From contig MU004182.1 of NCBI GenBank assembly GCA_010093605.1, positions 963,032-1,027,031 of the forward strand: DNA of 64,000 nt, given 5' to 3'. The position numbers were made by a program, and so were the translations under genes. Origin of the DNA: Lophium mytilinum (Eukaryota). How positions within the stretch are numbered: the first letter of the stretch is position 1; each line of letters opens with the position of its first letter. The notes under the pieces were generated by a model, which had not been told where the DNA came from, did no database searches, and worked only from the letters and a program-made list of their open reading frames with translations. Positions 18,158 through 24,791 of the stretch are shown here, in pieces.

Positions 18158-20741
18158 GGCGGCGATGGCACAGTGATGGAGTTGATGATCGGGCAATTAG
18201 GGAGCTTTGTGAGAGTAGACATGAATTGTGAGTCTTGCGCTGCAAGGTTGGGGAGGCGCTCGGGCCTTGGGCTTGGCTATGATCTACTTCGTAACCACCA
18301 ACGACTTCACGCTTGATGAGAGTTCCATCGCTCCACAATACACTTTGCGTGCAGCTTCGAGGTCTCCCTGCATCGCTACAAAGGGCGAATAACGACTCTT
18401 ATCGTCAGCGATGAATCCACTCGTTTGCTCTACAATTTCGCTACCGTACCTCCAAACGGCATAAGCAGTAATAACATGCTTCAGCATCTGCTCGTCTTCT
18501 CTTCTTCGGTCCGGAATGCTGCCAGATACTAGCCACCCCATCTCCACCGTCTCAGTCGCGATCCTATGCAGCCGTTTAGCTCTGCTTAATGGCGGCTAAC
18601 TAGCTCATCTCCTGATCCTCGAAGCGTGGTGCCTTGCTATCTCGCCAGCGTGGAGTGGGTAGGCTTTCTAACACTTTAGTTTGCGTCCCAGAGTGCTTTC
18701 CTGCCCTAAACTCTTTGCTTCTTAATAGATATGCGGACATGCAGAATTCAACGGTAGGGTTTTAAAGTAGTAGTCCGCTGCTTTGACTTTAACAACTACC
18801 CCAGGTCTCGCTTTCAAGAGATAAGACAAAGCCGCCGAGCAGCATTTAGGAATTCGAGAAGAGGGAGAACGAACGGTTTGAGTCGAAAGATTCGAGCACG
18901 CGCCGCTCCGAAACTGGTGTCAATGTCTAAGCCTAGAAAAGCACAAAAGGTCTAGTCGAGCTAGGGTGATACAGTGCGTTGCCGCAAAGTCTGTATGTAC
19001 TGTACTGTACATCCACTTGACGCTGCTTAAGGCGCCGGCCCACCATTCGAAAATCACAACAGGATGTCAAGATCTGGAAGGTCGAGAGTCAACTGGCTTC
19101 GAATCGGTCTTGATTGACCAGCTACGTGCTAGGGTTGTTCCAAGGTTCCATCAACAGTAGCACCCAAGCACAGCTACGGCGTGTCCAGATTCGTGACCAA
19201 GTACTGCATCTCCTACACATCCTATCAATTTCCAACACTAGTACCATCTCCGCACTAAGTCCACTACACTTCACGCGCCATCCAAACCTCAGCTCTCCAA
19301 GATACCGTAAGCATCGACCTCGCACCCGCATCCAGTGGCGCCCTCCCCTCACCACCATTGGCCCGCTACCCTCACCTCTCCACGCCACACCCCCATCGTC
19401 ACGCCCAAAACCACCCCAACCCAGCCAACCCGCAGCCTCGCCCTACGCCCGCATCGGGGCAGCATCGCGAAAACGGAAAACGGGCAAACGCTGGCATCAG
19501 CAGCGGTACTCCGCCAAGCCGCTGCAACACGCGTCGCCACATGCTTAACTCGAGCGCCAAGCGCAGCCATCACGAGCCTACCGCACTGCCAATGCCAGCC
19601 TCTCGCTTTTTATGGCCTACGGAGTATGCCCGAGCAGGATACTCCCACATCAGCAGCGGCTGCTTGCTTCCGTGCGGCACAGAAAATGGGGTATGAAACG
19701 AGAGGGTTTGCCACGGATTGACGTAGGTGGTGTGCATACATGCTTTCACCGCCAGTCGTCCGATTTTAATAAAGGCAGCCGCAGACCCCCCGCTGAGTCT
19801 GCTTCAACCTTCTCTCTCACCTTGCTGGGATTTGCCAAGCCTCCTCCGTTGCGGCTTGCATGCTTCGACCTGATGGATGCTGACGGCGTCGAGAAGAGTG
19901 CACTTCACCGCTAAACTTGCAGGTTCGTACAAAGCCTACCCGCATCCTCAGCTGAGTGCTCCTCTCTCTTTTCCATCTCACATTATTCGAAATCATTCCA
20001 ATTCGCAAGGCTCAATCTCAGCGCAAGGCTTCATATCTACATTTTCTTCTTTCAGCCTCGGATCATTGTCACAAGGCGTTTTGCCAGGCCTTTTCTTCAC
20101 AGTTCGCATGCTTCCATCCCACCCTCATCTTTCCTATCTGAAATCATCTCCCTGTACATTACAGTTTTCAAATATAAGTCACTCCAAAAGTCACCATTTC
20201 ACCCAATCACAAGCATCAAAAGCATTCCTGAGTTCGAAGAGCGGTTCAATGAGGCTTGAAAACTACGCTATACCAGCCCACCCAGCAACCAGTGCCCAGC
20301 ACGGCTCAATGGAGCGCCGTTTCCCGCATCCCGAATCATAAACATTACTGTCTCGCAGAAAAGCGATGCGCGCAGGACCCAATAAACCCCGGGGGAAACC
20401 ATGAGGGTCGTAAACCATGGCATGTGTTATCACAGCCTTTGCCTCCCATCCAACCATCCATAGATCCATGTGTCGTATCCCAATAACTGAAAAAAGGTGG
20501 TATCGAAGCTCGCGCTCGCATTGAAGAAGAACAACACTAAACAATAAAACGACGAGGCGGAAGGAAAGAAGTTAAGAAGCAAAAAAAGAAGAGACAAGAA
20601 GGTGGTATCGAAGAAGCAAGGGCAACAATGGCCCATCCGTAAAAGTACAGCAACCATAACAATATCGTCTCAGTGTATGTTAAGTTGAAGTCGTTTAAAA
20701 CTTTTTTCCGAGGTCGCGTTGGTAGATCGTGGAATCTGGAC

Positions 20742-21188
20742 TTAGACAATGAAGTCCTCGAGCTCGCCACCATGGTGGTCGCGGATGTTATCCGGAATCC
20801 ACGGCCCCTTCTCCTCAGCCGTCGCGCCATGCAGCGCCTCGGCGCGGTTCAGCGTCTGGATGTCTAGGTCCGTGATGTAGCTCTTGCCATCGGGCAGCTT
20901 CATGCGGACCTCGAACTCCTGGTCCAGCATCATGTCGTCCTTCCACAGCCGCCGCGGGCCGTCGTACACACACAGCACCCGCTTCTTCATCTTCATCTTG
21001 TCCGTGGCGCAACCCCACGACACGGGGTAGTTCTTGCGCTTCTTGCGCCCGGACGCCGTCATGGCCACGCCGCCCTTCGAGAAGGTCAGCCCAGCCCGAG
21101 GACCCCTCCCACCTGAGGTCTTCGCCACCTTGTTGTTGTTACCACCCCCGGCGTGCGATGAAACGACACCCCGGGGATGTGCTAGCTG
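20742..21188 (-). other. In-frame 148-codon extension after the C2H2 gene stop (putative readthrough domain)
   Basis: Open from the codon after TGA (21191-21189) to TAA (20744-20742), with coding-like G/C third positions; RKKRKNYPVSWGC...KKRVLCVYDGPRRLWKDDMML...KGPW. Confidence 0.8.
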
Positions 21189-21194
21189 TCATTG
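21143..21194 (-). promoter_or_regulatory. Putative readthrough signal: CAA-TGA-CAG-CTA plus 3' stem-loop
   Basis: CARYYA immediately after the stop; stem CATCCCCGG/CCGGGGGTG (21179-21171 with 21151-21143). Confidence 0.7.
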
Positions 21195-23206
21195 CGAGTT
21201 CTTGGTGCTCTTGATGCCACCCTTGCCGGAGCGAGACCGCCGCACACCGTATGTGTCGTCGTTCTCATCATCCACGTCGATCTCCTCGTCTTCTTCCTCG
21301 TCCTCATCGTACGCAGGCACCGAGTAGTCCTCGGCACTCTGCAGACCGTTGCGGTCCATCGTCTCCACCACATCCAGGTCGTCGGCAACCGAGGATAGCA
21401 GCTTCTGGTTGATGGCCTCGCTTGGGTCTGCCTGTTGCACAACGCGCAGCACGCAGTCATCGAGATGCTCGTAGAAGTCCTGGGCGTTGTTGAAAGTAAC
21501 GCTGCAGGTAGAGCAAGTACCGCGCAGGTTCTCTTGCGTGGCAGTGTAGGCCTTCTTGCCGGACGGCGACCTCTTGCGGCTGTTTGGCGGTGCCTGTTCG
21601 ACGCCATGAACGGAAGTGAGATGGCGTTTGAAGACGTCGGCGCGGTTGAAGCTCTTCTCGGCGGCCGAGCCAGAGCCTGGGCAGAAACCGCACACCATGG
21701 TGCCCTTGTAGTGGGTCAAGGTGTGCCTGTTCTTGTCGTACTTACGCGCGAATCCCTTCAAGTGGTATTCGCACGTCCCGATCGGGCACTTCTCCGGTCG
21801 CTCGTTCTGGTGGGTGAGCATGTGGGCTTTGAGGTCCTTGAAGACACGGCCGCACTCTGGAATCGGGCAGAGGCCTTTCTCCCTGCTCTCGTCATCTAGC
21901 TCGTAGCTGCTTCCACTCTTTCGGCTTGCAACCGATTGATGCGAGAGAATTGAGGCATTCGATTGCCGTCGCGAGCCGTTGAAGCCGTTGTGGTAGGGTT
22001 GGAAGCTTTGAGTGTGAAGGTAGGGTGATTGCGAACCCCTCTTGAACTGACGAGAACCAGCGTGGTGGCTGTGGTTGGAGCCCATGGAAGGTGCTGGGGA
22101 TGGGGGCTGCTCAATGAAGGGGAAGCGCGGGGAAGGTGTTGTGTGGATGGCGGGATATGGTGATTGCGGGAAGTTGAGTTGTGTGGGGTATGGCTGGATC
22201 AAGGTGGGGTCTGGAGAAGAGACGTTAGCTTATGGGTCTTCTACGACTGCTGCGAAAGACGCGAAAAAGTACGAAGAGGTGGACGGGAAGGAAACCGACA
22301 AGAAGACTCCAAAGGAGGAATGAAATTGAGATTGTTTTGAGAGTACGGAGAGCGAAGAGTGACTGGAGAAGAGAAGGATGTTTCCGGCAACGAGTCCAGG
22401 ATGTCGGTTGGGAGCAGCTCGGTCGACAGCAACGAATTCCTCCGCCCTCTGCCATGCGCCGCCCCCGAAGGAGACCGACGCATCGAGAGGGGCCCTGGGG
22501 GCATAGCCGAGGCCGGCGTTGTCGGAGTCTGGAAGAGGCCGCTCTCCGACTTGGGAGAAGGAGTCTGAAGCGCAGGCGTGTGCTGTCCGGATGTGTTCTC
22601 GCGCATAGGGTCGACGAAAGAGTTGGATGAAACAGCAGATGACGCGCAAGAGAAAGCGATTGAAGAGACACGCGGCCTTGACGAAGAAAGTTCATAAGAC
22701 TCACCAACACACTTGTCAGTCGCGACCAAGCTCTCGTAGTCGTAGCCAGAGGTGCTCTGCACAATCCCCGGCGCGAGGCCGAGGCCGTTGATGCTGCCCC
22801 ACGGCTGGTCGTGGAACTGCGGGTGGAGCGAGGGCGAGCCCATGGCGGAGGACGAGACTGATGCACCCGACTCGGATGAGGTGGAGAGATTGGGCGGCTG
22901 GATGTCGAAGGAGTGCGCGCCCGAGTTGGGCGAGCCGGCTGGGCTATACTGCTGCTGCTGGTAGCTGGGCTTCACACCTTGGGCAATGGCATCGTAGTGG
23001 AAGCGGAGGTCCTGTGAGCGCGGCGCCTCGGAAAAGGCATGCAGCGAAGCCGGGTCGAAGGGCGCGCTGAAGGATGGGTCAAGATATTGTGAGGTGGGTA
23101 GGTAGGCGGGCTGCGAGGTAGCAAGCAGGTCGAACTGCTGCTCCTGGGTGGCGTAAAGCTCGAAGTCGTGCTGCATGGTGGGCGGATACTGGGCGTACGA
23201 GACCAT
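21189..23206 (-). CDS. C2H2 zinc-finger transcription factor
   Basis: ATG at 23206; intron acceptor at 22211 with donors at 22704 or 22299. Fingers CPIPECGRVFKDLKAHMLTH, CPIGTCEYHLKGFARKYDKNRHTLTH, CGFC..FNRADVFKRHLTSVH, CSTC..FYEHLDDC; acidic tail. 5' UTR intron 23333-23266. Confidence 0.92.
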
Positions 23207-24791
23207 GTCGAGCACAGCAAGCAGTGGGCAAGGGCGGGAATAAGAGGCTCTCGGTGCGTGTGCTCCTGGGACCGGGTTAGCATCGGGACTGAGGTGGTGA
23301 TATACATTCAGGTAGCGGACCAGGAAAGCTTACGGGCAGGGCTAGCACGCGGCTATCCGGGCACAGGGACGCTGCGTCCTGCGTCGAGTCAATCTCGCGA
23401 AAGCGTGATGTGCGATCGGCGTCGGGTTGGTGCTGGAGACAAGAGTCGCGCGTCGGCAGGGGGGCGGGCGGTAGGATCCCGTTGGGAGGAAGGGCCGAAG
23501 CGGGAAGCGATGGAGGGCGTAGAGGATCGGGGACCTGGAACTCGAGGGAGGCCTGAAGCGGTCTTGTTTATGCTGATCGGGGCCTGGAATTTCTGAGGGG
23601 GCGAAGTCTGGGAGCGTGTCGAAGATATAAGACGTGTGTGCAAGCCCCCTCGAAGACAAATGGCCCATGTGGATGCGCAGCAGTGCACCGGCATGCCGAA
23701 ACCCTGTGGACGGCCGGCGTGGAGGCCCCGGCGTGAGGTGGCAGCGGTGGCAGCGGTGGCAGAGGACTCGCGCTAGGAAAATAAGAAAGACAATCTTCAC
23801 CGCGCCCAGCGGCGGGCCCTCCGCCTCTTTCGCGCGCGCCGATGGCCCAGCAAGCCAGCAGCCTCCCAAGCCGAGCGGTGAATCCCCAGGCGCATCCCGG
23901 ACACATCCCTGGCCCGCCTGCAGCTCGTGCCCAAATGCGACCCCATGCACGCCCCATGCCTGTCGCCCGCTCCACAAGCCGACTGCATCGGGAGATGTCA
24001 AGCGGGTGCTCGACTGGTTCTGGACGGCGCCCTGTAGACCGAATCGTCCCACGGGGCCCCTGCCATCCCAGCAACCAGCCCGGCCCGCCAGTCTCGGGTA
24101 GGGAGACACGCCCAAGAGCCAAGTCATGCGAGCCACGTCGCCGGGAGCCCTCCCGTGCTGTGAGTGGCCGTTGTCGCTGACGCCGGGTCCGCCGCGAAGC
24201 CAGAGGAGGGCTTCGCGTGCTCGCCGAATCACCGCCCGGCATGCCGTGGCTGAGCCGGGTTCTTTTGAGCTGCGCCCTAGCACCTATCCGGACAGTGGTG
24301 TATTTTTAGGGTGTCGGCGACCAATGAGCGCAGCCGGCACAGCCACGCCTTCTGAGCAGAGGCGCAGTCACCGCTCAAGCTTCAGTGACCCACCACCACC
24401 ACGAGCGACTCTGCAACATGACGCTGGGCATCGTGGGGAATGTGCCACCATCCGTCATCGCGCGCACGTCTCACCGCCCGCACTGGCGGCGAGCAGGTGT
24501 GTGGTGACAGACCGTCGTTGCGAGAGCGTGGTGGGTTGGGGTTGGCGCATCTCGAGCACCACTACCACAGGGCTCCCCGGCGCCAGTCCTCGAGCCTCAC
24601 GTCGCCATCTCGCCGTTTCATGATGATGACCGCAGGTGGGGGCAACCGCGATTCAATTTCGACGGCCGCCCGGTTGTTGGTTCTGGCAGCGTGCTGTCGA
24701 GATTCCAGTCTCAGCGACATGGTGTTGACTGTCAGACTCGGCCATTTCGTCCCGCCACAGTTCGCGGGAACAGGTCATCCTGCGGTGGGGG

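Follow-up and report, generated by a model that had tools for sequence, protein, structure and literature searches.

The stretch of DNA analyzed here, called the window below, comprises 64,000 nucleotides (nt) from the Dothideomycete Lophium mytilinum (order Mytilinidiales; NCBI GenBank assembly GCA_010093605.1, contig MU004182.1, positions 963,032 to 1,027,031). Its minus strand carries a gene for a C2H2 zinc-finger protein, whose open reading frame (ORF) ends with a UGA stop codon at 21191-21189 and stays open in the same frame for another 148 codons. Sequence comparison and RNA contigs make it highly probable that this UGA is the site of programmed readthrough, by which the gene would yield a short and a long isoform of a transcription factor. 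All features of the gene lie on the minus strand and are given in window coordinates.

The translation of the gene is 100% identical to the public protein P0161, listed as "zinc finger-containing protein [Lophium mytilinum]". The protein begins MVSYAQYPPTMQHDFELY at an ATG at 23204-23206, supported by the ORF list, the N-terminus of P0161, and the spliced translation. The zinc-finger block at 21453-21875 consists of C2H2-type motifs followed by a C2HC motif and is strongly conserved in relatives; in the ORF of 346 amino acids (aa), Pfam places a zf-C2H2 match at residues 121-140 (E-value 8e-6) and a zf-met-like match at residues 238-256. The transcript is outlined by contigs of sequencing run X1, which match the window with 0 differences and come from the same organism. 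A 68-nt intron in the 5' untranslated region (UTR), at 23265-23332, is removed in contig 7 (joint 23264->23333, side 198); its ends, CT..AC as read forward, are GT..AG on the minus strand. The intron of the main form, at 22211-22704 (494 nt, GTGAGT...CTAAC...CAG), is removed in contig 1 (joint 22210->22705, depth 496). Since these joints have GT..AG ends on the strand of the gene, X1 is RNA. The 3' UTR occupies 20400-20741, where record 1 of X1 (2,076 nt) is unbroken from 22210 down to 20400, and the RNA contig extends about 235 nt past 20400.

Around the stop, the minus-strand frame reads ...AAC TCG CAA TGA CAG CTA GCA. An earlier, sequence-only reading of this DNA had described the ORF as ending in CAA-UGA-CAG-CUA and had taken the stop to be leaky; the motif is indeed present at 21194-21183, with CAA ahead of the putatively leaky UGA (21189-21191) and the hexanucleotide CAG CUA right behind it (21183-21188). 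The hexanucleotide fits the pattern CARYYA, and stop-CARYYA is described as a consensus readthrough signal in which the C at position +4 is the most important base (PMC5397192).

For comparison with relatives, metagenome contigs were scanned with an alignment of the domain encoded behind the stop, and the best 80 of 248 confirmed loci were fetched, a set that consequently leans towards close relatives. A homologous in-frame stop is found in 71 of the 80 loci, with none within 90 nt in L041, L044, L068, L070, L071, and L073-L076. Together with the window, this gives 72 stop-bearing sequences with 53 distinct junction sequences. The stop is TGA in all 72, TAA or TAG in none. The hexanucleotide behind it fits CARYYA in all 72 as well, as CAATCA (29), CAATTA (28), CAACTA (12), CAACCA (2), and CAGCTA (1), so that the conservation of TGA-CARYYA, suggested earlier as a check, is complete in this set. 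The codon preceding the stop varies, by comparison, among CAA, CAT, GCG, AAT, AGT, TGT, GAT, and AGC.

The hexanucleotide runs against the codon usage of these genes. In 63 distinct sequences, the second codon after the stop is TTA (27), TCA (23), CTA (12), or CCA (1), swapping Leu, Ser, and Pro yet staying YYA throughout, while in the same genes CTA and TTA together encode 9.7% of Leu and TCA encodes 14% of Ser, with A-ending codons at 15% overall. The first codon is CAA in 62 of the 63, compared with 45% of Gln codons in these genes. This retention of YYA across amino acid changes and against the codon usage indicates that the hexanucleotide is held by selection on the RNA and not on the protein. 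UGA itself is an ordinary terminator in these fungi, the extension frames ending in TGA in 55 of 71 cases, TAA in 15, and TAG in 1; at these terminal stops, the next base is C in only 7 of 71.

In two of the loci without the stop, L041 (at about 1371-1520) and L044 (at about 2441-2590), GGT replaces TGA, the next two codons are CAA GTC, of which the second departs from YYA, and there is no hairpin. In these two loci the motif and the stem are absent where the stop is absent.

The sequence-only reading had also noticed a stem-loop nine nucleotides after the stop. It is present, at 21143-21179, with a main stem that pairs 21179-21171 with 21151-21143 and inner pairs between 21169-21167 and 21155-21153. 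The arms are CAUCCCCGG...CCGGGGGUG, and the 5' arm CAUCCCCGG begins at 21179, 9 nt past the stop. The minimum free energy (MFE) of an 81-nt stretch is -30.6 kcal/mol, whereas 200 shuffles that preserve dinucleotides average -22.0 (sd 3.1; z = -2.78), and 2 of them fold as well.

The hairpin alignment contains 47 distinct junctions, which are the 53 distinct ones minus six with different arms. Of 658 cells, 95.4% are paired, and sliding the 3' partner by 1-3 columns lowers this to 40-57%. Compensatory changes are seen at three main-stem pairs, CG to UA in 3 sequences at the first, GC to AU in 4 at the second, and GC (19), AU (15), and GU (11) side by side at the third. None of 500 shuffles reaches the observed covariation score or number of doubly changed cells, and RNAalifold independently predicts the same stem, so that the proposed check for covariation comes out in favor of the structure. 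Among all 72 stop-bearing sequences, the 9-nt arm at positions +10 to +18 finds a downstream partner with 9 of 9 pairs in 57, 8 of 9 in 8, 7 of 9 in 6, and 5 of 9 in 1; when the downstream 60 nt are shuffled, a full partner appears in only 2 of 72. The spacer between stop and hairpin is 9 nt in all 47 aligned junctions. The six variant sequences (L030, L031, L033, L040, L067, and L072) carry another hairpin, of the GGUGG/CCACC type, which likewise starts 9 nt after the UGA.

The extension comprises 148 codons at 21188-20745 and closes with the stop TAA at 20744-20742, as the sequence-only reading had described, and the contents named there, a Gly-rich linker, a basic RKKRK, and a W/C/D-rich part, are all present. 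The basic cluster lies at 21033-21047, with G47, R48, and R51 of the extension nearly invariant in an alignment of 50 sequences (A3), and is a possible nuclear localization signal. The conserved core of the C-terminal domain covers extension residues 31 to 135 approximately (20784-21098; alignments A1 and A3), with the motifs GLTFSKGG ... YPxSWG ... KKRVLCVYDGxRRLWKDDMML ... YVTDLDVQT ... EEKGPW.

The frame behind the stop is open for 124-178 codons in all 72 stop-bearing sequences, one of which reaches the end of its contig, and the aligned junctions differ in length only by multiples of three. For the extension, the median ratio of nonsynonymous to synonymous substitution (dN/dS), calculated for 63 distinct sequences from the 791 pairs with dS of 0.05-1.5, is 0.184, well below the value of 1 suggested as a check; for the 330 codons upstream of the stop it is 0.080 (55 sequences, 104 pairs). 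The proportions of synonymous (pS) and nonsynonymous (pN) differences, pooled over all pairs of distinct sequences, resolve this constraint along the gene. Against a background pS of 0.74-0.77 in the upstream gene, pS is 0.61 in the last 20 codons ahead of the stop, falls to 0.22 in the CARYYA and to 0.19, 0.42, and 0.30 in the 5' arm, loop, and 3' arm of the hairpin, and returns to 0.58-0.76 further downstream. In the domain core, pS is 0.76 and pN is 0.11-0.18.

A profile-free search with the extension among 1.84 billion representative proteins yielded 202 matches with E-values of at most 1e-3, of which 34 were at or below 1e-30. Most of the matches lie at the C-terminal end of proteins of 400-1,300 aa, which are the same zinc-finger factor. 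The Pfam search assigned no family to the extension, and the ESM Atlas search of the extension gave no usable match. A precomputed label, PF28332.1, is carried by relatives whose sequence takes in the extension, and those ending at the stop lack it; this label probably names the C-terminal domain.

RNA contigs cross the stop. X1 contig 1, from which the 494-nt intron is removed, is unbroken and unchanged from 22210 to beyond 20400, a span that includes the TGA and hairpin as well as the complete extension and 3' UTR. Run X2, a soil metatranscriptome, contains a relative that is about 96% alike; its contig 14 crosses the unchanged stop with a synonymous change at 21195 as the sole difference, and 11 of the 12 in-frame differences listed for its contig 10, over the extension, are at third codon positions. 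Five mRNA contigs of relatives are likewise spliced upstream and collinear across the TGA: two introns found in the related genomic locus L012 are absent from L002 and L004, the first of them is absent from L005 and L008 together with a shorter version of the second that uses the same acceptor, and L024 is without two introns of L022 (identity 99.8-100%). The earlier suggestion to look in RNA for an unspliced, unedited stop is thus borne out at the level of assembled contigs. Runs X6 and X7 contributed short pieces only, none of them across the stop, and were left unused.

Public gene models treat the position in different ways. Some, among them many metagenome ORFs, terminate where the stop would be expected by homology (...STKSH in Lindgomyces, ...NTKHH in Delitschia, and ...STKSD in Exserohilum), and others reach the domain through introns whose positions are discordant between species and some of which skip only about 9 codons, giving junctions such as CVLRV|LAHPRG, EHLDD|SHSRG, SRSGK|VTKT, DDTYG|GVAISG, and STK|GVGATQ. 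This discordance is the pattern of gene predictors forced round a stop. Dozens of public fungal gene models, that of the present locus included, would on this account truncate the protein at the stop or invent introns. P0161 (575 aa) departs from the RNA in two places. At the first, 255 nt (21440-21186) are removed to jump the stop, producing CVLRV|LAHPRG, and no X1 contig has a joint matching this intron. At the second (22210-22720), the model reads ...ATDK|SNVSSPDPTLIQ, where the RNA joint gives ...ATDKCV|DPTLIQ.

Relatives are also found in which the domain is reached with no stop. Four proteins (P0170, P0209, P0218, and P0222), seen as proteins only, have W at the stop position (...HWQLTGG) and belong to the lineage with the variant hairpin, in which members seem to have lost the stop secondarily; their W fits the view that Trp is acceptable at this position. 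The lineage is nearest to Plenodomus-like Pleosporales, and the usual hairpin is replaced in it by the GGUGG/CCACC type. In Claviceps, Chaetomium, Microsporum, Paracoccidioides, and others, the domain sits on the same factor behind a linker that looks continuous; the absence of the stop from these fungi is deduced from the continuous, motif-free linkers of protein models.

Two processes could produce a long protein from an mRNA that has no stop left in it, and we consider both improbable. The first, A-to-I editing, would turn the UGA into UGG (Trp) in some life stage and was named as an alternative in the sequence-only reading. Stop-loss editing is described in filamentous ascomycetes, in Fusarium and Neurospora, and the W at the stop position of a few relatives is the residue expected from editing. 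Editing confined to a particular life stage could have escaped the RNA samples; G is found at the site in no RNA contig, and contigs hide minor variants. The sequence around the stop nevertheless suits editing poorly. Fungal editing is described as strongly preferring U before the edited A and a position in a hairpin loop (PMC11156358), whereas the A of this UGA is preceded by G and belongs to the unpaired spacer, 9 nt ahead of the stem. Editing would predict UAG in place of the uniform TGA found here, and it leaves the conserved CARYYA and spacing unexplained. The Ame1-Tad3 interaction needed for editing is, moreover, reported to have arisen in Sordariomycetes (PMC11087585), whereas the stop-bearing fungi of this study are Dothideomycetes and relatives of Lecanoromycetes.

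The second process, minor or regulated in-frame splicing, would remove the stop with a 66-nt intron (21247-21182), the other alternative raised earlier, or with the 255-nt intron of the public model. It has about the same small chance of being right. In its favor, introns lead to the C-terminal domain in the public models of many species, and rare isoforms may escape contigs. A joint over the stop occurs in no X1 contig, though X1 shows the two real upstream introns, and the joint of the 66-nt intron is seen in no RNA contig at all; the five spliced contigs of relatives are collinear over the region, and the introns of the models disagree in position. An excised segment would, furthermore, need neither indels in multiples of three nor a frame that is open in every one of the 72 sequences, and splicing gives no reason for the CARYYA or for the fixed 9-nt spacer to the hairpin.

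Less probable still is that the downstream frame is translated alone, by reinitiation, from an internal start, or from a separate transcript, giving a free protein of about 100-145 aa and no fusion. Databases do contain stand-alone ORFs of 129-147 aa with the domain only (P0002, P0003, and P0005), and codon 43 of the extension in the window is an ATG (MTASGRKKRK). The stand-alone ORFs come from metagenome or run assemblies and start within two codons of the same place just past the stop region, a clustering expected from ORF calling after a stop. The ATG of the window is not conserved, relatives having I or V (VAITGSG and VAISGSG), and the constraint and the in-frame indels begin immediately behind the stem, ahead of any conserved Met. 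In addition, the domain is fused to the same factor in other fungal classes, and one RNA contig covers both parts.

It is hardly credible that the UGA simply terminates translation and that what follows is the decaying remnant of a once-fused domain: the ancestral form was probably a stop-free fusion, as this would have it, but a relic would gather stops and frameshifts, and here the frame is open throughout, with dN/dS at 0.18 and the core retaining its low pN at a pS of 0.76 across lineages that differ at most synonymous sites. Selenocysteine recoding was considered and rejected, as no selenocysteine insertion sequence (SECIS) was found; Rfam has no match at E-values up to 1 in 20600-21400, and on 20000-20800 it returned only two unrelated sub-threshold matches.

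The cassette of stop, hexanucleotide, and hairpin has a wide spread, estimated by matching each locus to its nearest named protein, which makes the assignments approximate. L015 and L017 are nearest to Alternaria infectoria (99.7% identity), L034 to Pyrenophora teres (96.6%), L026 to Stagonosporopsis (95.7%), the L002 group to Lepidopterella (92-93%), and L080 to Meristemomyces of the Mycosphaerellales (81%). The nearest named proteins are from Lecanoromycetes for L048 (Pleopsidium, 88.8%) and for L046, L059-L064, and L069 (Wetmoreana, 70-77%). Judged by these approximate assignments, the cassette occurs in more than one order of Dothideomycetes, several being represented, and in fungi with their nearest matches among Lecanoromycetes.

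The combination of UGA, C at position +4, a full hexanucleotide, and a hairpin after 9 nt makes programmed readthrough the most likely reading of this gene. The virus-like recoding cassette for short and long isoforms that was proposed from the sequence alone is supported by the conservation, the covariation, the dN/dS, and the RNA contigs. Most ribosomes would stop at the UGA at 21191-21189 and release a protein that contains the DNA-binding fingers and ends in an acidic tail. A fraction would decode the UGA through a near-cognate tRNA, probably that for Trp; readthrough of UGA is expected to insert Trp, Cys, or Arg. The CAR-YYA right after the stop should aid this step, and so should the hairpin 9 nt downstream, which would sit at the mRNA entrance of the ribosome. 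In murine leukemia virus (MuLV) and alphaviruses, structures 8-9 nt past the stop are described to raise readthrough up to about tenfold, maybe by way of the mRNA entrance (PMC3159437). Ribosomes that read through would go on for 148 codons and add the linker, the RKKRK cluster, and the conserved C-terminal domain, so that a minority of the protein would be extended. The long form is probably the ancestral full protein, since the domain is joined to the same factor without a stop in other fungal classes, and the stop would set the ratio of the truncated to the full form.

Several observations weigh against programmed readthrough or limit it. The six variant hairpins are, taken singly, no better than shuffles (z from -1.95 to +1.5), and the usual hairpin is weakened in one lineage, with 7 of 9 pairs in L059-L064 and an MFE fold of L059 that bypasses it. 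The motif TGACARYYA occurs 3 times in the 64-kb window, compared with 3.4 expected, which is chance level. The AlphaFold2 model of the extension, built on the 50-sequence alignment, is poor (mean predicted local distance difference test [pLDDT] 58.7, predicted template modeling score [pTM] 0.27), so that no function can be read from its fold. Assembled contigs drop rare variants and may hide a minor spliced or edited form. As the stem lies within coding sequence, its conservation could partly reflect constraint on the peptide motifs HPRG and HxGGG; to be set against this are one compensatory path that combines a synonymous change, CGG to CGA, with a replacement of Ala by Val, and differences in the first 20 codons that are spread evenly over the three codon positions (7,425, 7,650, and 8,566). 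The data directly show the signals and how they are conserved, a coding constraint behind the stop, and a mature mRNA that keeps the UGA, whereas readthrough itself, with its rate, the residue inserted, and the roles of the isoforms, is inferred.

A bolder and more doubtful extension of this interpretation is that the cassette is an ancient host-encoded switch, which would determine, and might adjust to growth state or stress, the balance between two opposing forms. Common to Dothideomycetes and to fungi nearest to Lecanoromycetes, the switch might date back hundreds of millions of years. One form would be the truncated factor, which keeps the fingers and is missing both the basic cluster and the C-terminal domain, and the other would be the full factor. 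If this holds, a transcription program would be under translational control through termination efficiency, and few cellular signals for readthrough known from outside the animals would be older or cleaner.

Programmed readthrough of UGA in cellular genes of fungi has a precedent: Freitag in 2012 and Stiebler in 2014 reportedly described UGA-CUA readthrough that exposes peroxisomal targeting signals in Ustilago and Aspergillus. Those cases involve short targeting tails and a short UGA-CU context and are not known to include a hairpin. The present gene resembles them in its fungal, cellular setting and differs in adding a domain of 148 aa and in having CARYYA together with a hairpin.

The closest likenesses are viral. 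Tobamovirus type I signals, as in the replicase of tobacco mosaic virus (TMV; stop-CAA-UUA), share the CARYYA after the stop (PMC5397192, PMC3159437), which is universal in our set, and the codon ahead of the stop is CAA in the window as in TMV, a codon that is not conserved among the relatives. Type I sites are generally UAG, unlike the uniform UGA found here, and are described as needing no hairpin (PMC3159437). The pomovirus CAA-UYA sites are described in the same account as lacking extended conservation, in contrast to the conserved hairpin of this gene, which is, in addition, cellular and fungal. Type II signals, as in alphavirus nsP3/nsP4 and in tobra-, peclu-, and furoviruses, share the UGA-C, a spacer in the range of 7-9 nt (9 nt here), compensatory changes in the stem, and a dip in synonymous variation (PMC3159437). 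The hairpin of 37 nt described here is, however, much more compact than the viral structures, whose stems enclose loops of about 100 nt within a total span of 96-150 nt, and the adjacent triplets are CAR-YYA and not the CGG or CUA of the viruses (PMC3159437).

Among cellular genes, the Drosophila POU factor Drifter/vvl and the human vitamin D receptor are described to gain C-terminal extensions by readthrough (PMC8417969, PMC5868278); they belong to other families and kingdoms, and the extension studied here is constitutively fused in other fungi. The UGA between gag and pol of fission yeast Ty3/Gypsy elements also has a conserved UGA-C and is proposed to set a ratio of short and long products, in a mobile element with the context GAA-TGA-CT (PMC10085805) as opposed to a single-copy host gene with another context. 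What is unusual about the present case is that a host gene unites a type I hexanucleotide, UGA, and a compact hairpin, together with the depth of conservation and the size and ancestry of the added domain. A literature search, to which most subscription journals were out of reach, found no account of it. Deeply conserved programmed readthrough in cellular genes is rare outside insects and mammals, and this locus would add a case, in which the output of a conserved, uncharacterized fungal regulator may be set at translation termination. The co-occurrence of CARYYA and a 3' structure also offers a natural system for studying their cooperation.

The gene has two alternative 5' splice sites with the common acceptor 22211, a distal GTGAGT at 22704 used in the main form and a proximal GTCGGT at 22299 used in a minor one. 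The proximal donor would yield an 89-nt intron and a product longer by 135 aa, and X1 contig 4 (depth 53.6), representing the minor form, covers 22300-22734 and ends exactly at this donor. Both forms are in frame and differ by 135 codons of a Ser/Pro-rich region. The same pair is found in mRNA contigs of a relative (L002 and L004 versus L005 and L008, compared with L012). With two splice forms, each terminated or read through, four products are possible, predicted at 507 aa (main form) and 642 aa (minor form) when terminated and at 656 and 791 aa when read through.

NsdC, an Aspergillus regulator of sexual development, was considered as the identity of the factor and set aside, the comparison being with published descriptions and not with its sequence. 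NsdC is described to have a C2H2-C2H2-C2HC domain of about 80 aa with a finger spacing of C-X2-C-X12-H-X3-H (PMC3749384, PMC13599534), a description that does not fit the protein of the window, in which the cysteine/histidine motifs are spread over about 140 aa and the cysteines of the first two fingers are spaced C-X4-C.

Neither of the remaining TGACARYYA sites of the window, two in number, has an ORF context. One of them, TGACAGTCA, lies at 24726-24734, and a run of X in the translation just upstream of it indicates a stretch of N in the window at about 24.75-24.85 kb.

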